A DNA stretch of 64,000 nt from Thermoplasmata archaeon. GTDB taxonomy: Archaea > Thermoplasmatota > Thermoplasmata > Lutacidiplasmatales > UBA184. The notes below the pieces were generated by a model. It was not told where the DNA came from. It did no database searches and saw only the letters and a list, made by a program, of their open reading frames with translations. The position numbers were made by a program, and so were the translations under genes. The stretch covers positions 169,202 to 233,201 of the forward strand of contig JAKASQ010000001.1 of the NCBI GenBank assembly GCA_021828195.1, in the 5' to 3' direction. This document shows, piece by piece, positions 1 through 14,566 of this stretch (position 1 is its first letter; the number at the start of each line of letters is the position of its first letter).

Positions 1-1145
1 GCCAGGGCGTCGCCACCTTGCTCAAGGCGGCCGGCGTGAGCGTCCTAGTCGGCGGGGCCAAGTTCACCGGCCCGAAGTCCGCGGAGTTCCAGGCGCCCGA
101 CGGCGGCTCCGAGCGGATCGATTTCGACAGCGCGATCGTCGCCACCGGCGCCGTCCCGGTCACGATCCCGGGCTTCGAGACGGACGGGAAGCGGGTCATC
201 AACTCCTGGGAGTTGCTCTCGCTGACCCAGCTGCCGAAGTCCCTCCTCGTCCTGGGGGGAGGAGTCAGTGGCTGCGAGCTCGGCGAGTTCATGGCCCGGG
301 TCGGGGTCTCCGTGACGATCGTCGAGCTGATGCCTCAGATCCTCCCCGGCCTCGACGCCGATCTCGCCCGGGAGCTCTCGAAGACCCTCGAAAAGTGGGG
401 CGTCGGCGTGCGAGTGGCCACCAAGGCCGTCCAGCTCGATCGGTCCGGCCCGGTGCTCGCGCTGACCGTGGAGGGCGCGAGCGGCCGCGAGACCCTGAGC
501 GCCGAGACGTTGTTCGTGACGGTCGGCAAACGGGCCGACAGTGCCCACCTCGGCCTCGACGATGCCGGTGTGCAGTTCGATCCCAAGAACGGGTTCATCG
601 CCGTCAACGATCGGATGCAGACCAACGTTCCCCACATCTACGCGGCCGGCGACGTCTGCCGGCCCCCGATGCTGGCTCACAAGGCCTACCGCGAAGGAAT
701 CGTGGCGGCGGAGGTCATCGCCGGCCGTACGACCCGGTTCGACTTCCAAGCGATCCCGTCGGTCGTCTTCACGACGCCCGAGCTCGCATCGGTCGGCCTG
801 ACGCTCGCCGAGGCCCAGAAGCAAGGACTGTCGGCCCGAGAGGCTCGCTTTCCGTTCGCCGCTCTCGGCCGTGCGCACGCGAACCATGCGACCGACGGCT
901 GGCTCAAGGTCGTCGGGGAGGACTCGACCGGTGCGTTCCTCGGTGGCCACGCCGCCGGCACCGCGGCGGGAGAGTACGCCGCGGAGTTCGCGCTGGCAAT
1001 CGAGATGGGCGCGACGATGCGCGATCTCGCGCAAACGATCCACCCCCACCCCACGTTCGCAGAGTCGATCGCGGAAGCGGCGCTCCTGTGGCTCGGCGAG
1101 CCCATGCACGTCGCCCGGAGAACGAGCGATGCCCGCGCACGTTGA
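1..1145 (+). CDS. lpdA: Dihydrolipoyl dehydrogenase (E3), 5'-partial (continues upstream of window)
   Basis: Translation shows FAD/NAD pyridine-nucleotide-disulfide oxidoreductase dimerisation region (GKRADSAHLGLD, HIYAAGDV, HPHPTFAE); ORF open to window start. Confidence 0.85.
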   Translation, partial: QGVATLLKAAGVSVLVGGAKFTGPKSAEFQAPDGGSERIDFDSAIVATGAVPVTIPGFETDGKRVINSWELLSLTQLPKSLLVLGGGVSGCELGEFMARVGVSVTIVELMPQILPGLDADLARELSKTLEKWGVGVRVATKAVQLDRSGPVLALTVEGASGRETLSAETLFVTVGKRADSAHLGLDDAGVQFDPKNGFIAVNDRMQTNVPHIYAAGDVCRPPMLAHKAYREGIVAAEVIAGRTTRFDFQAIPSVVFTTPELASVGLTLAEAQKQGLSAREARFPFAALGRAHANHATDGWLKVVGEDSTGAFLGGHAAGTAAGEYAAEFALAIEMGATMRDLAQTIHPHPTFAESIAEAALLWLGEPMHVARRTSDARAR

Positions 1146-5813: not shown

Positions 5814-6919
5814 GCCGAGACCTCGAGGTATCCCCGTGGAGCGGTGGTGAGGAAACGGTAGCCGTCCTTCGTGACCACTACGTCGTCCTCGATGCGGACG
5901 CCGCCGTGCCCGGAGAGGTAGATCCCCGGCTCGATGGTGATGGCCATCCCTTCCTCGATCGGTTCCTCGACCAGCTGGTTCATGCCCCATCCGTCGTGGA
6001 CGTTGAGACCGATGGAGTGGCCGAGCCCGTGCATGAACTTGCCCTTGTACGGAGAGGCATCGATGACCTTCGCCGCCGCGTTGTGGACGTCCTTTCCCGG
6101 CACGCCCGGTCGGAGCACGGCGAGCGCGGCCTGCTGCGCCTCCTCGACGAGCTCGTGGACCCTCTTCATCTCGTCATCGCGCTTTCCGAAGTGAAAGGAG
6201 CGCGTAATGTCGCTCGCGTACCGACGGTAGAACGCGCCGAAGTCGCAGACCATCGAGTCGCCGCTCTGGAGTTTGCGATCGCCGGCGAAGTAATGGGGCT
6301 CCGCGCCGTTCGGCCCGAAGCCGACGATCGTCGAGAAGGATGGGCCGCTCGCTCCGTGCTTCATCATGCGGTAGTTCATCTCGGTCGCTAGCGCGAGCTC
6401 GGTCATGTTCTCCTCGAGCATCCCCGGGATTTCGCGAGCGACGACGGAGCCGATGTCGGCGGCCTTCTGAAGGCGCCCGAGCTCCTCGGCGTCCTTCGTG
6501 ACCCTCGCGCGCTTGATCGCGCGGCTCGCGTCGACCCATCGAACCGACGGGAACATCTCTTCGAACCTCAGGAACTGCTGGTGGGTCAGCTCCTGGTAGT
6601 TCATGCCCACCGACGCCTTCGAGTCGAGCAACTTGTGGAGCGTCGCGTCGCTCTCCTCGCGGGAGGTCGGCACGTGCACCGTCAGGTGCCGGTCGGTCTT
6701 GGCCGCTAGGTGGGCGCTCGTGGCCTCGAGCGGCGAGCTCAGGACGTCGAGGTTCCCATCCGGGTACGCGACCGCGACCGAGCCCTCGAACAGCCCGCTT
6801 GGAACGTCGAACAGATAGAAGAAACTGCCATCGAGGTGGGGATCCACCGAGTTCGCCAGCAACAGGGCCTCCGGCTTCGGATCGAGATGCCCGAACACCT
6901 TCTCCACGCGCGCTTTCAT
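5810..6919 (-). CDS. Xaa-Pro aminopeptidase/dipeptidase (peptidase M24B)
   Basis: HGLGHSIGLNVHDGW and EPGIYL motifs (metal ligands of the pita-bread fold); start placed at MKARVEKV. Confidence 0.8.
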   Translation of the reverse strand: MKARVEKVFGHLDPKPEALLLANSVDPHLDGSFFYLFDVPSGLFEGSVAVAYPDGNLDVLSSPLEATSAHLAAKTDRHLTVHVPTSREESDATLHKLLDSKASVGMNYQELTHQQFLRFEEMFPSVRWVDASRAIKRARVTKDAEELGRLQKAADIGSVVAREIPGMLEENMTELALATEMNYRMMKHGASGPSFSTIVGFGPNGAEPHYFAGDRKLQSGDSMVCDFGAFYRRYASDITRSFHFGKRDDEMKRVHELVEEAQQAALAVLRPGVPGKDVHNAAAKVIDASPYKGKFMHGLGHSIGLNVHDGWGMNQLVEEPIEEGMAITIEPGIYLSGHGGVRIEDDVVVTKDGYRFLTTAPRGYLEVSA

Positions 6920-6984: not shown

Positions 6985-8490
6985 CTACGGCGGTGCGGGC
7001 GTCGTCGCGGGCCGTCCCGCGGGCGCCGAGGGGACCGGGACCGTGCGCAGGTCTTTCCATGAGAGCTGGAGCTCGCGGGCGGCGCGCACCTCGTCCACGC
7101 GCCCGACGGAGAGGTTCTTCGGAGCCTCCCGCAGGTGCTGCGGGGTGTCGTGGATCGCGCGGTCGAACGCCTCCACGAACGCGTCGAGCTCGCGTCGGCT
7201 CTCTGTTTCCGGGAACTCGATCATGAGCGACTCCTCCACGAGCGAAGGGAAGTAAACGGTCGGGGCGTGTACGCCCTCGTCGAGCAGGCGCTTGGCGAGA
7301 TCGAGCGTCCGGACGCCTTCCTCCTTCAGCCGAGCACCGGAGAGGACGAACTCATGCTTGACGAGCTTGCCGAACGGTCGCGGGAGGAACTTCCCGAGCC
7401 GGTCGGCGAGGTAGTTCGAATTGAGGACCGCGCGTCGGGAGACGTGGGCGAGGCCCTCTTCGCCGTGGGAGAGGATGTAGACGTACGCGCGCAGGTCGAG
7501 GCCGAAGTTGCCGTAGCCGGTCTTGATCTTGCCGATCGATTTCGGCCGTTGGTAATCGAGGTAGTACCGGCGCTTGTCCTTGGCCACCCGGGGGACGGGA
7601 AGGTACGGAGCAAGCTCCTCCCCGGCGCCGAGGGCGCCGGCCCCGGGACCCCCGCCACCGTGGGGAGTGGCGAACGTCTTGTGCAGGTTCAGGTGCGCGA
7701 CATCGAACCCCATTCTTCCTGGGGACGAGACGCCCATGATCGCGTTGAGGTTCGCTCCGTCGTAGTAGAGCATCGCGCCCGCCTCGTGGACCGTGCGCGC
7801 GATCAACATGATGTCGGACTCGAACAGCCCGGCGGTGTTGGGGTTCGTGAGCATGAAGCACGCGGTCCTCTCCGAGATGGCCTCCTTGAGCCTCCCAAGG
7901 TCGACGCACCCGTTCTTCGACGGGATCTCGCGGGTGGTGAAGCCGGCCATCGCGGCCGAAGCGGGGTTGGTGCCGTGCGCCGTGTCGGGGAGGAGGACCT
8001 CCGTGCGCTGCCCGAGCTTCCCCTGGTCCTGGAAGTAGGCACGCACCATGAGCAGGGCCGCATACTCCCCGTGGGCCCCGGCCGCCGGCTGGAGGGACAC
8101 TTCGCGCAGCCCGGTGACCTTCGCGAGGAGCTTCTCCAGGCGATAGATGAGCTCGAGCGAACCCTGGACGGTGTTCTCGGGCTGGTACGGGTGGACATCG
8201 GCGGCGCCGGGCCGGCGGGCGAGCATCTCGGAGACCTTCGGATTGTACTTCATCGTGCACGAGCCGAGCGGATACGCCGAGGTCTCGATCCCGAAGTTCA
8301 TCTGGGAGAGCCGAGTGTAGTGACGTGCGATCTCGGGCTCGCTGAGCTCGGGCCATCGGAGGGCCGTCTGGCGCCGCCATCGGTCCGGCACTCCGGGGAG
8401 GGCGATCGCCGGGCCGTTCGTGGTCGCCGTCTTCGGCGGAGCGAGCTCCCACAGTGGGGGTTCGTCCCATCGCGCCTGGCGGAATGTCAT
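6985..8490 (-). CDS. gcvPB: Glycine dehydrogenase (decarboxylating) subunit 2
   Basis: Typical GcvPB N-terminus (MTFRQARWDEP...), PLP-fold; immediately downstream of gcvPA with 4-nt overlap. Confidence 0.9.
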   Translation of the reverse strand: MTFRQARWDEPPLWELAPPKTATTNGPAIALPGVPDRWRRQTALRWPELSEPEIARHYTRLSQMNFGIETSAYPLGSCTMKYNPKVSEMLARRPGAADVHPYQPENTVQGSLELIYRLEKLLAKVTGLREVSLQPAAGAHGEYAALLMVRAYFQDQGKLGQRTEVLLPDTAHGTNPASAAMAGFTTREIPSKNGCVDLGRLKEAISERTACFMLTNPNTAGLFESDIMLIARTVHEAGAMLYYDGANLNAIMGVSSPGRMGFDVAHLNLHKTFATPHGGGGPGAGALGAGEELAPYLPVPRVAKDKRRYYLDYQRPKSIGKIKTGYGNFGLDLRAYVYILSHGEEGLAHVSRRAVLNSNYLADRLGKFLPRPFGKLVKHEFVLSGARLKEEGVRTLDLAKRLLDEGVHAPTVYFPSLVEESLMIEFPETESRRELDAFVEAFDRAIHDTPQHLREAPKNLSVGRVDEVRAARELQLSWKDLRTVPVPSAPAGRPATTPAPP

Positions 8491-9896
8491 GGACCCCCCG
8501 CGGGACCGGGCGCGAGCGTCTCACGCACCGCCCTCACGTACTTGCGGATGTCCGCGGTGTCCGCGGCTTGGCTCGGAGCCACATGGACGAGCTCGGGCCC
8601 GGACTTCACGGCGCGGAGAGGATCGGAGAGGGAGTGGCCGGCCAGGACGCCCTTCGCGAGCATGCGGTCCAGGAATCCCACAGCGTTCCCGTGGGCGAGC
8701 TCCATCGTGAACTCGCCAAGGAATGGGGCGGTGAATCGAGGGACCTTGAGGCCCTCGAGGCCATGGAGGGCCGTCGCGAGCGCATGCGCCTTCTCCGCGA
8801 GTTCGGCCTGGAGCCGGGCGAGCCGCGTGGGTCCGACGCTCGAGGCGTACAGAACGAACGCGAGCGCGACGAGCGACTGGTTGGTGCAGATGTTGGACGT
8901 GGCTCGCGAACGGCGGATGTGCTGCTCGCGGGTCTGGAGGGTCAGGGTGTACGCACGCCGACCGTTCACGTCCTGCGTCGCCCCCACGAGACGGCCGGGC
9001 AGGAAGCGCACGTGCTCGCGCCGGCAGGCCATCAGGCCGAGGAGGGGCCCACCGAAGCTGGGAGGCATCCCGAATCCCTGGCCCTCCCCGACGACGATGT
9101 CGGCCCCGTACTCGCCCGGCGGCTGGAGCACGGTCAGTGCGAGCGGGTCGGCGCTCACCACGAGCGGGACGGTCCCGATGGCCGATTTGAGGTCGAGAAC
9201 GCGCTCATCCACGAGTCCGAAGCCGTTGGGAACATCCGCGAGCACCCCGAAGACGTCCCCCCGGCGCACCTCGCGGTCGATCCACTCCCCATCGAGCGTC
9301 CCGGTCACTGGGTCGAACGGGATCTCCGCGACCTTCAGGCCGAGCCCGACTCCGTAGTTCCCGAGGACGCTCTTCTCCTCCCAAGGCAGGCTCGCCGGAA
9401 CGAGGAAGCGATCTCCGGGGTGGATGCGTCGGCATAGGAGCATCGCCTCGCCGGCGGCCGTGGCGCCGTCGTACAGCGAGGCGTTCGCAACATCGAGGCC
9501 GGAGAGCTCGACCCACAGGCTCTGGAACTCGAAGAGGGCTTGGAGCATTCCCTGGCTCGCTTCGGGCTGGTACGGCGTGTACGAGGTCAGGAACTCGCTC
9601 CGTGAGATCAGCGCGTCGACGACGGCGGGGAGGTAGCGCGAGGAGATCCGGCCCCCGAGGAAGTTCGAGAAGCGGGAGGCCGGCTTGTTGCGCGCGAGGA
9701 TCTTGTCCACGTCGGCGACCACTTCCGGTTCCGTGCGACCCGGTCCGATGCCCATGCGGCCGACCCGGACCCCCTTCGGAATGTCGGCGAACAGCGCATC
9801 GAACGATGGGAGCCCGAGCGAGCGGAGCATCTCCGCCTCCTCCGCCGGGCTGTCCGGAATCCACCGCGACACGAGGCTCTCCCGGACCGGTCGCAA
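8487..9896 (-). CDS. gcvPA: Glycine dehydrogenase (decarboxylating) subunit 1
   Basis: YIP-type start (SRWIPDSP), SYTPYQPEASQG motif. Confidence 0.9.
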   Translation of the reverse strand: MRPVRESLVSRWIPDSPAEEAEMLRSLGLPSFDALFADIPKGVRVGRMGIGPGRTEPEVVADVDKILARNKPASRFSNFLGGRISSRYLPAVVDALISRSEFLTSYTPYQPEASQGMLQALFEFQSLWVELSGLDVANASLYDGATAAGEAMLLCRRIHPGDRFLVPASLPWEEKSVLGNYGVGLGLKVAEIPFDPVTGTLDGEWIDREVRRGDVFGVLADVPNGFGLVDERVLDLKSAIGTVPLVVSADPLALTVLQPPGEYGADIVVGEGQGFGMPPSFGGPLLGLMACRREHVRFLPGRLVGATQDVNGRRAYTLTLQTREQHIRRSRATSNICTNQSLVALAFVLYASSVGPTRLARLQAELAEKAHALATALHGLEGLKVPRFTAPFLGEFTMELAHGNAVGFLDRMLAKGVLAGHSLSDPLRAVKSGPELVHVAPSQAADTADIRKYVRAVRETLAPGPAGGP

Positions 9897-9995
9897 GTGG
9901 CTCTCGGATTAAAGCGGTTGGTGTCGGGATTCGCGCCGGCCCGCTCGATAGGACAAGCCTATGCGCCCGGTCCGGTGACACGCGGAGAGGAACCC

Positions 9996-11075
9996 ATGGC
10001 ACAAACCGCCCCCGCACGCCGGCCGTCCCGCTCCGGGGCGGAACGACCCTCCCCGGCGTCGGTCGAGATCCTCGACATCGCCTTCCACCGCGCGGACCTC
10101 TCCAACCCGAAGGGGCGCACGAAGGCCGAGCGCGACCGCCACCGGGCCGAGCTCAAGGTCGTCCGGAGCGCGGCGACGGTGATCCGGCTCCTTCAAGCGG
10201 AAACGCGCCGGTTCCGCCGCCCCCCGCTGACCGACTTCGAACGAGCCCTGATCGCCCGCCGGTTCGGCGAGGGGACGCTCGATCGATCGCTCACCCGAGT
10301 CGGACGTGCCGTGGACCGCATTCGGGGTCTGCAACGGGACTCCGAGCGGGCCGTCCATCACGCGGCGGGGGCCGACGAGCTCGGGGTCGAAGTTCGCCGG
10401 TTCTACGGTCGCATGGCGAGCCATGTGCGCGAGATCGACGCCGACCTCGCCCGGCTCAAGCAGCTCGATCGGTTCCGAGAGGACCGGCCCCGACTCGATC
10501 CGAACGCCCCCACGCTCGTCGTCGCGGGGTTCCCGAACGTTGGGAAGTCCTCGCTGGTCGCGCGCCTGTCTTCGGCGCACCCGAAGGTCGCCGACTATCC
10601 GTTCACCACGCTCGCGATCGCCGTGGGACACGCCGACCTCGGCTTCGACCGCTGGCAGGTGCTCGACACCCCGGGAGTCCTCGGCCGCTCCCACCGAGCG
10701 AACCCGGCCGAGGCCGAGGCGCGGACCGCCGTCGAGCGGGCCGCCAGCGTCGTGCTCTTCGTGCTCGATCCGACCCCCGGGGCCGAGCCACCGCTCGAGG
10801 AACAGGAAGAACTTCTCGCCCGCTGGAAGCGGGAACTGCCCGGTCGCCCGATCCTCGAGGTCGAGACGAAGGCCGATCTGTTTCGTCGCCCGGGAAGCGA
10901 GCGCCTCCACGTCTCTTCGGCCACGGGCGAGGGGCTCGACGAGCTCTGGGAGAGGATCCGAGGGATCTGGAGCTCGATGCCGCGACCCGAGCGCCTCCCC
11001 GAGGAAGAGGACGCGCCGGAGGACGAAGAGCGCCCGCGCGCCGGCGCCTATCGAGGGCGCCACGCGGCCCGGTAG
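9996..11075 (+). CDS. NOG1-family GTPase (archaeal/eukaryotic nucleolar GTP-binding protein homologue)
   Basis: VVAGFPNVGKSSLV (G1), DTPG (G3), TKADL (G4); alternative start at 9897. Confidence 0.7.
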   Translation: MAQTAPARRPSRSGAERPSPASVEILDIAFHRADLSNPKGRTKAERDRHRAELKVVRSAATVIRLLQAETRRFRRPPLTDFERALIARRFGEGTLDRSLTRVGRAVDRIRGLQRDSERAVHHAAGADELGVEVRRFYGRMASHVREIDADLARLKQLDRFREDRPRLDPNAPTLVVAGFPNVGKSSLVARLSSAHPKVADYPFTTLAIAVGHADLGFDRWQVLDTPGVLGRSHRANPAEAEARTAVERAASVVLFVLDPTPGAEPPLEEQEELLARWKRELPGRPILEVETKADLFRRPGSERLHVSSATGEGLDELWERIRGIWSSMPRPERLPEEEDAPEDEERPRAGAYRGRHAAR

Positions 11076-11339
11076 CCAAAGGATCGGTGCAAGCCCCGTA
11101 GTGGGGGAGGATACGGGGGTCTCCGCATCGAAGGTCCCACCGGGGGAGGTCGTGGGGGCGGTTGTGGAGGGAGTCCCGATCGTGCTCGTGAACTTCGGGG
11201 AGTCGATTCGAGCCCTGTAGGGAGAGCGCCCTCATCTCGGAGCCTCGCTCGCGGAGGGTTCTAACTGCTAATGGGAAAACACATGTATAGGCGTAAGGAC
11301 ATGTCGAGAACAATCCCTGGAAACGGGGAGGTGCGCCCG

Positions 11340-11620
11340 AGCAACCGAGTGAACTCGGGTGTAGATGGGCGGTATCCGGTTGTGCGCCCAGCACGTAAAA
11401 CCGCAAGGAATCTGGGCTGCAACAGGGCCGACGAAAACCAAGTCGGCCCGATGAAACTCCTCGACAACGAAGAGCGTCGCGGCCAGTTCGGCCGAGACGG
11501 AAAACGCCTGCGGAGGAAGGAGGTTCATGCCGAAGACGGCAGGTGCCTTCCAAGGAATCAGGAACCCAGCATCATCGGTGCTTGTCACCAATGTATAGGT
11601 ATGGGAGAACGGAACACTCG
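11340..11620 (+). ncRNA. Candidate structured ncRNA in a 720-bp GC-poorer spacer, with possible RNase P RNA-like P4 motifs. Strand and ends are uncertain
   Basis: No convincing ORF on either strand. Several perfect hairpins (GGGCCGAC-N9-GUCGGCCC; GCCG-AAGA-CGGC; GGAAGG...CCUUCC). GGAAUCUGGGCUG resembles RNase P CR-I (GGAAAGUCCGGGCUC). CAGGAACCCAGCAUCAUCGGUGCUUGUCACC resembles CR-V/P4-P2 3' strand (ACAGAACCCGGCUUAUCGGUCAGUUUCACC). I could not find CR-II/III. Confidence 0.25.
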
Positions 11621-11798
11621 TCGGCCGGCGGCTGACGTGCCTCCTGCACGAGGCGGCCTTCGACGCGGGCACCGGGGCGGTCCTGGCCGATCCGTTCGGG
11701 GCCGAATCCCCCGCGGGGGAGATCCCTGCGGCCCGCACCGATCCGGTCCGGATCGACGGCGACCGCGTCGGGGTCGATCTTCCGTAGACCCCGGGCGC

Positions 11799-13031
11799 TC
11801 AGATCGTGAAGGACTTCCCGTTCTCGGGGAGCACGACCTCGAACTCGGTCGCGAGGGCGTCGCGGAGCGGCTCGCGGTGATCGCCATGCATGAGCACGAT
11901 CTTGCGCGCGTGGGTACTGCGTGCGAGCTCCACGAGTTCCGAGTGCCCGGCGTGAGCGGAGAAGTCGTACTTCTGCACCTCGCACGCGGGCCGGATCGTC
12001 GTCTCGTCGATCGTCAGGGTCCCTTCGTCCATGAGCTGGCGGCCGTTCGATCCTTCGACCTGGAAGCCGGTCAGCAGGATCGAGGAGTTCGCGTCGCGAT
12101 ACAGCTCCCCGACATAGAACAGCACCGGGCCTCCGTCCATCATGCCGCCGGTCGTGACGATCACGTCGGCCTCCCGGACGGCGTGCCGTCGTTCGCCCTG
12201 GTGCTCGATGACGTGCACGGAGTCCATGGCCCGGCGGAATCGCTTCGGATCGGACAAGTACTCCGGAGCGGCGGCGTAGATCGAGTTCACCGCGCGAGCC
12301 ATCCCGTCGAGGTAGACCTCCAGCCCGGTTCCTCCGAGCGTCATCAGGACCTCCTGCGCTCGCCCGACGGCGAACGCCGGTACGATGACCTTGCCCCCTC
12401 GTTCGACCGTCTCGCGGACCTTGTCGCGGAACTGGTGCTCGGTCTGCTTGCGGTCCGGGTGCTCCTTTCCGGAGTAGGTCGACTCGAGGACAAGGATGTC
12501 GCACTCGAGCGGCTCGGCCCCCTTGACGAGGTGGGTGGGGATGGTCTGCACGTCGCCCGAGAACAGCACATCCTTCTCGCCTCGGTAGCGGAACATCGTC
12601 GCCCCGGGAATGTGCCCGGCCGGCGTGAGCTCGACCTCGATCCCGTGGTGGCGGAACGTCTCGTGGCGGCCCATGGCGGTCGCATGCGCATGGAGCGAGC
12701 CGATGTCCTGGGACTGGTACGGAGGCAAGTATCCCTCGAGACGAGCAATCTTGAGCGCATCGCGCGCGAGGAGGTTGGACACCGCGAGCGTGACGGGAGT
12801 CGCGATCACTCGGGCCTTGGGCAGCCGCGAGAGGATGGGGGTCATCCCCGAGTGGTCGAGGTGGGCGTGCGTGAGAAAGGCGACGTCTACGTTGTGCGGC
12901 ACGCGCAGCGGATACGAGGGCGGGTCGGTCGGCGTCATCCCGTAGTCGAAGAGCAGCGTGCGGCCCGCATCGCGGACGACGAGGCCGAGGGAGCCGACCT
13001 CCGACGCTCCCCCCAGGAATTGGAACTCCAT
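11799..13031 (-). CDS. Beta-CASP metallo-beta-lactamase ribonuclease (archaeal aCPSF2-like, no KH domains)
   Basis: HAHLDHSG MBL motif, beta-CASP region; start at MEFQFLGGASEVG. Confidence 0.8.
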   Translation of the reverse strand: MEFQFLGGASEVGSLGLVVRDAGRTLLFDYGMTPTDPPSYPLRVPHNVDVAFLTHAHLDHSGMTPILSRLPKARVIATPVTLAVSNLLARDALKIARLEGYLPPYQSQDIGSLHAHATAMGRHETFRHHGIEVELTPAGHIPGATMFRYRGEKDVLFSGDVQTIPTHLVKGAEPLECDILVLESTYSGKEHPDRKQTEHQFRDKVRETVERGGKVIVPAFAVGRAQEVLMTLGGTGLEVYLDGMARAVNSIYAAAPEYLSDPKRFRRAMDSVHVIEHQGERRHAVREADVIVTTGGMMDGGPVLFYVGELYRDANSSILLTGFQVEGSNGRQLMDEGTLTIDETTIRPACEVQKYDFSAHAGHSELVELARSTHARKIVLMHGDHREPLRDALATEFEVVLPENGKSFTI

Positions 13032-13206
13032 TGGCGGCACGAGCCGGGTCCGTGATTTAACGTAACGTGCGCTCACGAGAGGAGGCCGGTCGCGCGAGGG
13101 ACCCGGGATCCTCTCCGTGCGGCGGGTGCCCGCCGCTCCCCGCGCTCCGGCGGCCGGCTCGTAACCGTCAATACGGGATCCCGGATACGTCGTCGATTCC
13201 CGACGC

Positions 13207-13731
13207 ATGACGCACTGCTATCGCGCGAGCGTACGTTGGACCGGGAACCGGGGGACCGGCACGAGCTCCTACCGGGCGTACGGTCGCGACCATCTCATCG
13301 CTTTCGAGGGAAAGCCCGAGCTCCTCGGATCCTCGGACCCGGTCTTCCGCGGTGACCGGAGTCGGTACAATCCCGAAGAACTTCTGGTCGCCTCGCTGTC
13401 GGCGTGTCACATGCTCGGGTACCTGCACCTGTGCGCGGAGTCGGACCTCGTCGTGGAGACGTACTCGGACGAGGCGAGCGGGGCGATGGAAACAACCCCC
13501 GATGGATCGGGTCGGTTCGTCCTCGTGACCCTTCACCCGGCCGTTACGATCCGCAGCGGATCCCCCGATCGAGCGACGGAGCTCCACACGCGGGCCCACG
13601 AGATCTGCTTCATCGCGAACTCGGTGAACTTTCCGGTCCGGTGCGAGCCCACCGTTCGTCTCCTCTCCCAAGCGGACCGGGGAGCGACGCACGCGGAGGG
13701 CCGGGAGCCGGCGGGGCCAAAGGGGTCTTGA
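13207..13731 (+). CDS. OsmC/Ohr-family peroxiredoxin-like protein
   Basis: EELLVASLSACHMLGYLHLC and C-terminal ...HEICFIANSV conserved Cys pair arrangement of OsmC. Confidence 0.65.
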   Translation: MTHCYRASVRWTGNRGTGTSSYRAYGRDHLIAFEGKPELLGSSDPVFRGDRSRYNPEELLVASLSACHMLGYLHLCAESDLVVETYSDEASGAMETTPDGSGRFVLVTLHPAVTIRSGSPDRATELHTRAHEICFIANSVNFPVRCEPTVRLLSQADRGATHAEGREPAGPKGS

Positions 13732-13753
13732 GCCCTCCTCTCGTCCCTCCTCC

Positions 13754-14566
13754 GTGCCCGGCCTGACCTCGCCCGACCTCGAGATCCTCTTTCGCATCAC
13801 GGCCGCTGCCCATGCGGCGGTCCTCCAGGCCTCGAGCTCGCCCCACCGGGCGGACGTGGTGGCGATGGGGGCGGACGGATCCCCCACCGAGGAGCTCGAC
13901 CGCGTGGCCGAGGCCGAGATCCTCTCCGTGCTCGATCGCGAGGCCGTGGACTGGGATTTCCTGAGCGAGGAGATCGGCCACGTGCGACGCGGTGGAGACC
14001 GCACGCTCGTCGTCGATCCGATCGACGGGACTACGAACGCCTTGCGGGGACTGCCGTTCGCGGCGATCTCCCTCGCGCTCGGCCGCGAGCACCTCGACGG
14101 CATCGAGACCGGGGTCGTCTACGATCTCTACCGCGGGACCACGTACTGGGCGACCCGCGGGGGCGGCGCGTTCTGCGACGGCCGACCGATCCACGTGCGC
14201 CCCTGGAACGCGAAGGCCGAGCTCCTGTTCGCGAATCTCGGTCGGTACGCGAGCGATCGAACGGTCGAGATGTCCCGGCAGGCGCGTCGGATCCGCGCGC
14301 TGGGCTGCGCGTCGCTCGAGATCGCCAAGGTCGCGCAGGGCACCGCCGACGGTTACATCTTCGAGAACCTCCCGGCGAGCCGCAACCTCCGAGCCACGGA
14401 CATCGCGGCCGGTTACCGCATCCTGGTCGAGGCGGGAGGGGGCATCTCGGACTTCGAGGGCCGCCCGATCGGCCCCTTCCCGCTCACCGTCCAGGAACGG
14501 ACGAGCGTCCTCGCCTGGGGCGATGCCGAGTTCTTGAAGGCGCGTGCACCTCGGAGCCCCCCGTGA
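13754..14566 (+). CDS. suhB: Inositol monophosphatase / fructose-1,6-bisphosphatase family (archaeal IMPase/FBPase)
   Basis: FLSEE...VVDPIDGT...WDxxAG-like motifs (ATDIAAG). Confidence 0.8.
   Translation: MPGLTSPDLEILFRITAAAHAAVLQASSSPHRADVVAMGADGSPTEELDRVAEAEILSVLDREAVDWDFLSEEIGHVRRGGDRTLVVDPIDGTTNALRGLPFAAISLALGREHLDGIETGVVYDLYRGTTYWATRGGGAFCDGRPIHVRPWNAKAELLFANLGRYASDRTVEMSRQARRIRALGCASLEIAKVAQGTADGYIFENLPASRNLRATDIAAGYRILVEAGGGISDFEGRPIGPFPLTVQERTSVLAWGDAEFLKARAPRSPP

Follow-up and report, generated by a model that had tools for sequence, protein, structure and literature searches.

Transposons of the IS607 family are known from Helicobacter pylori IS607 and from an IS607-type element of Clostridium botulinum. 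For one characterised IS607 system, Zedaveinyte et al. (bioRxiv 10.1101/2023.11.20.567912) report a strict GG core dinucleotide and a preferred 5'-TGGG-3' target, which is also the transposon-adjacent motif (TAM) of the RNA-guided endonuclease TnpB. In their account, the right boundary is where the scaffold of the TnpB guide RNA, the obligate mobile element-guided activity RNA (omegaRNA) or right-end RNA (reRNA), stops with ...UCGG-3'. Two further groups are relevant: the palindrome-associated transposable elements (PATEs), which are gene-less derivatives of IS200/IS605 elements that carry omegaRNAs used in trans (Meers et al., PMC10055086), and the IStrons, which are chimeras of a group I intron with an IS605 or IS607 element (Tourasse et al., PMC4227781; Zedaveinyte et al.). 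Here, a 64,000-nt stretch of a Thermoplasmata archaeon genome (67.1% GC; contig JAKASQ010000001.1 of assembly GCA_021828195.1), referred to as the window, was analysed at positions 11076-11798, a 720-bp "spacer" between the genes for a NOG1-type GTPase and a beta-CASP RNase. The spacer is a dead gene for a Rieske iron-sulfur protein, split by a 354-bp gene-less transposon of the IS607 family.

The element resembles the IS607 family (bioRxiv 10.1101/2023.11.20.567912) in its homologous ends, its GG crossover, its NGGG target or TAM, the lack of a longer target duplication, and a scaffold that shares sequence with the 3' end of tnpB and has ...CGG as its last bases at the right boundary. Unlike members of that family, it is protein-free and retains only a 40-codon tail of tnpB with its stop codon; unlike its full-length relatives, it contains a structured domain of ~165 nt, and it has A rather than T at position -4 of the TAM. 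Its hosts are archaeal (Thermoplasmata) genomes and their mobile elements, unlike the hosts of the cited IS607 examples. As in PATEs, the element is minimal and non-autonomous, with two transposon ends and, as in many PATEs, a guide RNA that would serve a TnpB encoded elsewhere. A Y1 tyrosine transposase mobilises PATEs in single-stranded form, and these elements have subterminal palindromes and AT-rich TAMs such as TTGAT (PMC10055086), whereas the IS607-type ends and the GG/AGGG junctions of the window element would imply a serine recombinase and a double-stranded circle. With the IStrons it shares the IS607/IS605-type affiliation, an extra structured RNA domain on the left and an omegaRNA on the right, and IStrons can also sit in sense orientation inside genes; unlike them, it has no group I signature in Rfam, its extra domain measures ~165 nt, and its 5' flank ends in G, not U. 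In Halobacterium, the sense overlapping transcripts (sotRNAs) are archaeal sense non-coding RNAs (ncRNAs) that overlap the 3' end of IS1341-type tnpB genes. By this description, they are like the RNA proposed here in lying on the same strand as tnpB and overlapping its 3' end, but they belong to a different transposon family and to full-length tnpB genes.

According to the initial annotation, which was made from the sequence alone, the region held no credible open reading frame (ORF). It instead holds the two halves of a Rieske-domain reading frame (Table 1), which when joined match Pfam PF00355 with E=5e-9 (36.4 bits against a cutoff of 20.3) and each of which on its own matches the corresponding half of the profile. 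The GC content by codon position is periodic, in the same phase, at 11090-11270 and 11600-11800. Read through, the host frame gives VGEDTG...FGESIRAL, a stop, GERPHLGASLAEG, then ~118 stop-rich codons, then TLVGRRLTCLLHEAAFDAGTG...VGVDLP and the terminal stop. The 39-codon GTG ORF (11101-11220) proposed for the region is the N-terminal part of the Rieske gene up to a premature in-frame TAG at 11218-11220. Just beyond this stop, the first Cys ligand is replaced by Arg (codon CGC, 11227-11229), to give RPH rather than CPH. Where a working gene would have the ligands CxH...CxxH in an uninterrupted frame, this one has the RPH motif, the in-frame TAG and a 354-nt insertion, and it is a pseudogene.

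Via the beta-CASP protein, 80 syntenic loci from Thermoplasmata metagenome-assembled genomes were fetched. A Rieske gene lies between the beta-CASP and NOG1 genes in 18 of the 80, and in all 18 (locus L002 and 17 Thermoplasmata genomes) it lacks the insertion, showing that the ancestor had a small Rieske-domain gene at this position. The intact orthologues read ...CPHLGGLLADGTLAGRRLTCPLH..., and both they and L002 can be aligned with the C-terminal half in the window. The 17 more distant relatives have an apparently intact gene of ~110 aa with CPH...CPxH motifs, and many other relatives have no Rieske gene at the position between NOG1 and beta-CASP. The closest relative with sequence at the site is L002, the beta-CASP and NOG1 products of which are 94% and 90% identical to those in the window. 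In L002 (6281-6610, minus strand) the Rieske halves are contiguous and degenerate, with the same Arg (ERPY) and with a stop and a frameshift of their own. Because L002 shares the Cys-to-Arg change at the first ligand and is itself degenerate, decay of the Rieske gene probably began before the insertion, although precise excision in the L002 lineage may be an alternative.

Comparison with L002 defines the insertion, which lies in sense orientation relative to the Rieske gene between ...GCGGAGGG and AACACTC.... With slashes at the boundaries, the window reads GAGGG/TTCT...AACGG/AACACTC and the empty site in L002 reads GAGGG/AACGCTC; the insert also ends in GG, such that the boundary is ambiguous by 2 nt. 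Removal of the insert in silico restores the Rieske reading frame (...LAEGTLVGRRLTCLLH...). The insert is not present at any of the 80 syntenic loci. Across copies of the element found elsewhere, the left flank is AGGG at six of seven independent insertion sites and GGGG at the seventh, the right end is ...CGG (...ACGG) in every copy, and only the GG is shared at the junctions, with no longer target duplication. Junctions of the form AGGG/...ACGG/ fit the published IS607 mechanism.

Table 1. Features of the window at and around the interrupted Rieske gene.
Feature	Positions	Strand	Basis
Gene-less (non-autonomous) IS607-family element, 354 nt, 56.5% GC	11259-11612	+	Empty site in L002; recurrent copies; homologous ends
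AGGG target site or TAM-like motif at left end; last GG, crossover dinucleotide	11255-11258	+	Common to copies
Left end: conserved terminus TTCTAACTGCTAATGG and TATA-like box ATGTATAG (11283-11290)	11259-11300	+	Alignment with L139, L108
Middle domain, ~165 nt of conserved structured sequence	11301-11465	+	Covariation; conservation
3' module: TnpB guide-RNA (omegaRNA/reRNA) scaffold, ending ...GGTATGGGAGAACGG	11466-11612	+	Homology; covariation; model 178.5 bits
tnpB remnant: last 40 codons (VAASSAETENACGGRRFMPKTAGAFQGIRNPASSVLVTNV) and TAG stop (11596-11598)	11476-11598	+	Translation; tblastn
Predicted guide, ~16-20 nt directly 3' of scaffold	11613-11632	+	Expected from TnpB/omegaRNA mechanism
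Rieske [2Fe-2S] pseudogene, N-terminal half	11101-11258	+	Translation; Pfam Rieske profile positions 8-54
Rieske pseudogene, C-terminal half (TLVGRRLTCLLHEAAFDAGTG...VGVDLP), stop TAG 11785-11787	11613-11787	+	Profile positions 53-80
NOG1-type GTPase gene	9897-11075	+	Pfam
beta-CASP RNase gene	11799-13208	-	Pfam

Several other kinds of insertion were considered and rejected. The 9-mer ATGTATAGG does occur at both 11283 and 11591, as the initial annotation had it, but it does not flank the region, since both occurrences lie inside the inserted element. As a target-site duplication it fails because both copies are internal, are not identical in other copies of the element and are expected by chance: at least one exact 9-mer repeat was found within 723 nt in 1550 of 2000 shuffles. 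The duplicated TGGGARAAC ("WEN") likewise lies inside the element. A classical miniature inverted-repeat transposable element (MITE) is rejected given that none of 21 inverted pairs is a terminal inverted repeat and only GG is shared at the junctions; its only likeness to a MITE is its small size and lack of genes. Although 354 nt equals 118 codons, an intein or other in-frame coding insert is rejected, since stop codons interrupt the host frame within the insert and the lengths of other copies are 345, 356 and 357 nt.

The insertion is a mobile element, because its copies have unrelated flanks and the site is empty in L002. Outside the window, copies were found at L081-L084 and L164-L168, in unrelated flanks and with 70-84% identity to the window copy; as a rounded figure, the element recurs with ~80-85% identity on eight further contigs. 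The mini-elements are 345-357 nt in length, all beginning with YTYTARCTGCTAAYGG and ending with GGTATGGGAGRACGG. They were reached through spurious reading frames. The open plus-strand frame of the insert, compared with 5.8 billion predicted proteins, gave one cluster, P0001, whose contigs carry the insert at 84-86% DNA identity, with homology ending exactly at ...GGGAGAACGG. An exhaustive HMMER search with the minus-strand frame gave seven more spurious ORFs, on contigs L164-L170. Of these contigs, L164, L165, L167 and L168 have complete copies, the copy in L166 is cut by the contig end, and L169 and L170 have the 3' part of the element only. The copies counted as independent are the window copy, L081, L082/L083/L084 (as one), L164, L165, L166, L167 and L168. 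The presence of the same 345-357-nt architecture at several unrelated sites indicates that the mini form is mobile as such.

An exact 17-mer from the most conserved stretch was found at 79 loci, from which filtering with a profile kept L108, L139 and L152. A 16-mer probe gave 32 viral matches, all by chance. The insert has no match in plasmid and phage collections, the plus-strand frame has none in IMG/VR or the JGI metagenomes, a middle-domain probe found nothing in IMG/VR, and a search of protein space with P0006 gave no further copies.

The segment L082 (1-13550) comes from a 24.9-kb contig (ENA ERZ27237359, k141_948024) that encodes a Prim-Pol/D5_N primase-helicase, a ResIII helicase, an HNH nuclease and both N6/N4 and C5 DNA methyltransferases, together with an array of small ORFs on the same strand; the mini-element lies between the two methyltransferase genes. 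This contig looks like a virus or plasmid of archaea. L081 has the right flank of L082 (the C5 methylase), but its left flank differs and so does its variant of the left end, a pattern that recombination at or within the element would produce. In the small-ORF array of L081, a sub-threshold match to the Guanidine-III riboswitch at 2808-2869 on the minus strand (25.3 bits against a gathering score of 36, E=0.067) is probably noise. The copies at L164 445-800 and L165 880-1236, both on the minus strand, are 98% identical and have a left flank in common, with a 116-aa ORF that ends in the first TAA of the element, but their right flanks are entirely different, which suggests an element-mediated rearrangement or a nested mobile context. 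L170 (484-631, minus strand) is a 3' scaffold module that stands alone, lacking the left end, the middle domain and tnpB; a tRNA-Val gene (672-747, minus strand; GCA_027387215.1, DAHXSK010000003.1) lies ~40 nt upstream of it. This fragment of an archaeal chromosome also has genes for a ribosomal protein and for RNA polymerase subunit N.

The origin of the element is seen from its full-length relatives at L139 and L108, which are 1,881 nt in length and have two genes. The upstream gene encodes a 199-aa serine transposase, TnpA, of the IS607 family, with Resolvase and MerR domains and a match to the NF033518 equivalog at 177 bits against a cutoff of 110. The second encodes a 405-aa TnpB RNA-guided endonuclease, with 338 bits to NF040570 and matches to OrfB_IS605, Cas12f1-like TNB and HTH_OrfB_IS605 (Pfam, NCBIfam). 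The left ends of the full-length elements read GGG/CTTTAGCTGCTAAYGG with a TATA-like box upstream of the tnpA start, and are homologous to the left end of the mini-element, the terminus of which aligns with CTTTAGCTGCTAA(C/T)GG in L139 and L108. In the window, the TATA-like box is followed by an ATG at 11301-11303 that is at the position of the tnpA start codon in the full-length elements and is invariant in the alignment of mini-elements. L081 and L082 have a perfect TATATATA at the position of the box, which from its sequence and placement may be a promoter.

At the other end, the last ~145 nt of the insert are 77-80% identical to the right ends of L139 and L108, and align with the 3' end of tnpB plus 14 nt in L108, L139 and L152. 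In L139 the 3' module occupies 6424-6567, with the tnpB stop at 6551-6553 and the end of the element at 6567. The window still has the tail of TnpB, which reads VAASSAETENACG...GIRNPASSVLVTNV before the stop; tblastn with residues 365-405 of the L139 protein aligns it to 11476-11595 with 58.5% identity (E=1.4e-4). Since the insertion is homologous at both of its extremities, the left end and the last ~145 nt, to elements with tnpA and tnpB, it derives from an IS607-family element.

The element might be read as a small protein gene, given that the frame from the ATG at 11301 is called elsewhere as a 112-aa protein (the P0001 cluster). No stop interrupts this frame within the element in the window, L081-L084 or L168, equivalent ORFs (P0001-P0008) are predicted by gene callers in other assemblies, and GC content by codon position is periodic at ~11390-11570. 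The periodicity, however, is accounted for by the tnpB-tail remnant. The frame is broken in L164 and L165, the lengths of the copies (354, 356, 357 and 345 nt) differ by non-multiples of three, and the ORF has no stop inside the element but runs into unrelated flanks. There is no match to Pfam, and the substitutions are compensatory in RNA helices. A protein product is very improbable.

The element is structured at the RNA level. The initial annotation named several perfect helices, and these are present as described: GGGCCGAC/GTCGGCCC at 11425-11432/11442-11449, GCCG-AAGA-CGGC within GGAAGG/CCTTCC, and CCCGAG/CTCGGG. They are also kept in related copies through compensatory changes. The predicted fold of the 361-nt core is more stable than those of shuffled versions (z = -4.1 for either strand). 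Nine mini-element copies were aligned (alignment A1), and RNAalifold gave a consensus of 83 pairs, 15 of which have compensatory double changes. In this alignment 96% of cells form a standard pair, as against 34-44% when the partners are slid by 1-3 columns, and the number of pairs changed on both sides falls from 15 to 2-3 on the same sliding. The covariation score was reached in 0 of 500 shuffles, a figure that is not a probability because the sequences are related. For the same structure, 96.0% of cells are paired on the plus strand and 86.3% on the minus strand, with 81 cells G.U; therefore, the folded strand is the sense strand of the former tnpB.

In L139, L108 and L169, the homologue of the 3' module is the end of the tnpB gene together with the right end of the element; in the full-length relatives, the module thus includes part of tnpB, and it terminates at ...GAGAACGG. 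When 12 sequences of the module were aligned, including three tnpB-coding copies (alignment A2), RNAalifold gave 30 pairs, 11 with compensatory changes, arranged as consecutive stem-loops. The loop of the first, AGUUC (GUUC), is invariant and can pair with the 3'-terminal GAAC in nine of nine copies, with one U.G. The general architecture of an omegaRNA comprises a nexus stem-loop, a pseudoknot and three stem-loops; the module resembles it in its consecutive stem-loops, and the candidate pairing of loop and 3' terminus would correspond to the pseudoknot. Every copy ends ...GAGRACGG; similarity between copies stops exactly after ...ACGG, with unrelated sequence beyond, where a guide is expected. 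The AGGG motif followed by the predicted guide corresponds to the empty Rieske site, such that the matching target would be AGGG followed by AACACTCGTCGGCCGGCGGC.

These results bear on the suggestion of the initial annotation that the spacer is a candidate ncRNA, perhaps a minimal RNase P RNA or the RNA of the signal recognition particle (SRP). A structured RNA is borne out by the plus-strand covariation of A1, but not a free-standing gene, nor RNase P or SRP. Strings similar to conserved region (CR) I and to the P4/P2 3' strand (CR-V) of RNase P RNA are present, in a multi-helix RNA of similar size (compare RF00373, RF00010 and RF02357), and, with the hairpin-rich fold, they would speak for such a gene. 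In Rfam, however, no family of any kind reached its gathering score anywhere in the window. Neither the RNase P models RF00373, RF00010, RF00011, RF02357 and RF00009 nor the SRP models RF01857 and RF00169 gave a match when 10900-12000 was scanned with the limit relaxed to E<=10, or when six other copies were scanned at E<=5; the permissive scan of 10900-12000 gave only two noise matches, with E=5.6 and 7.6. The P4-like pairing CUGGG/CCCAG is contradicted by covariation, given that a G-to-A change in L166 and L167 produces an A.C mismatch there and is compensated by C-to-U in the local partner GCCCAG. The supposed P4/P2 3' strand is the most conserved, invariant part of the TnpB scaffold, and overlaps the 3' end of tnpB in full-length relatives. 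Conservation in relatives, as expected of a single-copy housekeeping RNA, is likewise absent: the sequence is missing from the L002 site and from the other syntenic loci, no copy occurs in ~800 kb of related loci, and the element is mobile and found on virus- or plasmid-like contigs. The Rfam negatives, the contradicted P4 pairing, the identity of the scaffold and the absence from relatives together lead us to reject the RNase P and SRP readings, and the chance that this is any free-standing cellular ncRNA gene is close to nil.

The middle domain is at least as conserved as the guide scaffold. Between the window and L081 its core (11329-11422) hardly differs, and the domain is 75-84% conserved across the other lineages except L168. 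Its helices include CCCGAG/CUCGGG, GCGGU/ACCGC and GGGCCGAC/GUCGGCCC, with a hairpin and a local pseudoknot, GCCCAG/CUGGGC, that is kept through C-G to U-A and A-U to G.U changes. Compensatory changes are found in helices 3, 6, 7 and 8. The domain has no match in Rfam, in either the window region or the six other copies, and it is not consistently open for translation across copies. It was considered as a diverged duplicate of the 3' scaffold, and rejected because the alignment score is no better than with shuffled sequence, and as a coding remnant of tnpB or tnpA, and rejected for lack of similarity to the full-length elements and of any Pfam match.

What the middle domain does is a matter of candidates. 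Its action is presumably that of an RNA, as an extension at the 5' side of the guide transcript. That it represents a new class of structured RNA module, acquired by gene-less IS607 derivatives and fused to the TnpB guide RNA, is a speculative idea that we consider rather unlikely. On that reading, the domain could be a ribozyme or a processing element, with the task of releasing the guide or of taking the element out of host transcripts; alternatively, a host or viral factor could be recruited through it, which would help a protein-free element to persist and spread in Thermoplasmata archaea and their viruses or plasmids.

If the middle domain were a ribozyme removing the element from host transcripts, the whole would be a self-splicing, IStron-like element. 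IS607 IStrons do exist, with splice sites that coincide with the transposon ends. The window element lies in sense orientation in a reading frame that its precise removal restores, and the domain is conserved, structured and pseudoknotted. Yet no model of a group I intron, group II intron or self-cleaving ribozyme matches any copy; the group I model RF00028 gave nothing at E<=10 in 10900-12000 or at E<=5 in the six other copies. In group I introns, the last base of the 5' exon is a U that pairs with the internal guide, whereas every copy here has G just before the left boundary. At ~165 nt the domain is much shorter than the 581-bp left end tested for the CboIStron, the interrupted gene is non-functional in any case, and most of the other copies examined appear to lie between genes. 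Self-splicing is accordingly an improbable account of the element.

The explanation that best covers the observations, and that we hold to be very probable, is a gene-less IS607 derivative with a TnpB guide scaffold, located in a Rieske pseudogene, which would act as follows. An IS607 serine recombinase, TnpA, supplied in trans would move the element by way of a double-stranded circle, and crossover would take place at the GG next to an AGGG target. The ambiguity of the junction by GG and the lack of a longer target duplication would follow from such a crossover. Transcription from the former tnpA promoter would yield a plus-strand RNA of ~310 nt, the 3' part of which would be the TnpB guide scaffold, with the adjacent ~16-20 nt of flank as the guide. 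TnpB made elsewhere could then cut the empty site, with its AGGG and guide match, such that retention or homing of the element would be favoured. The middle domain, as a 5' extension, might stabilise, process or regulate the guide RNA, for example.

Some observations weigh against this explanation. Neither tnpA nor tnpB is found in the element or in the 64-kb window, and because tnpA is lacking there, the element is classed as non-autonomous. No second copy was found in the window by blastn, nhmmer or a covariance model, nor in ~800 kb of related loci, and the covariance model of the 3' module found known copies only in the window and ~855 kb of loci. The middle domain has no counterpart in the full-length elements L139 and L108, so a simple internal deletion does not explain the mini-element. 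The base at -4 of the TAM is A, compared to T in one characterised system. The two sides of the nexus pseudoknot are invariant, and thus without covariation either way. Finally, the mini-element lineages number only about five or six and are mutually related, such that the shuffle statistics overstate their independence.

The lack of tnpA, tnpB and a second copy in the window, the position in a pseudogene, without selection, and the identity of only 70-84% to every other known copy would also be consistent with an inert relic, in which the remainder of a dead transposon, or captured foreign DNA, merely reflects the RNA structure of active relatives. The window copy nevertheless keeps the termini, the ATG, all helices and the invariant core, the helices first noted in it are perfect, and the alignment that includes it is 96% paired; furthermore, the mini form itself spreads. 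An inert relic is a real but lesser possibility. It concerns present activity and not identity, and is thus compatible with a gene-less IS607 derivative; this copy may be inactive.

The flanking genes are those named by the initial annotation, as Pfam confirms, and the lower GC content that it reported is real, at 0.56-0.61 across ~11175-11624 compared to 0.65-0.77 in the flanks; the insertion itself is well below the mean of the window. ARAGORN found no tRNA or tmRNA in the window. A 594-codon open frame (11271-13055, plus strand) starts inside the mini-element and covers the entire beta-CASP gene in antisense; it has the look of a shadow ORF, as is usual opposite GC-rich genes, rather than of a gene. 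The ORFs at 7135-9357 (plus strand, 740 aa) and 13168-14103 (minus strand, 311 aa) have no Pfam match at E<=0.01.

For annotation, this locus is a case in which a 720-bp "spacer" resolves into a pseudogene and a mobile element, and in which the tempting assignment to RNase P or SRP is wrong. The element would be the IS607 (serine-recombinase) counterpart of PATEs, with an extra RNA domain other than a group I intron, and thus a guide RNA that would behave as a selfish unit of its own, in archaea and in their viruses or plasmids. If functional, the middle domain would be a new accessory module for omegaRNAs.

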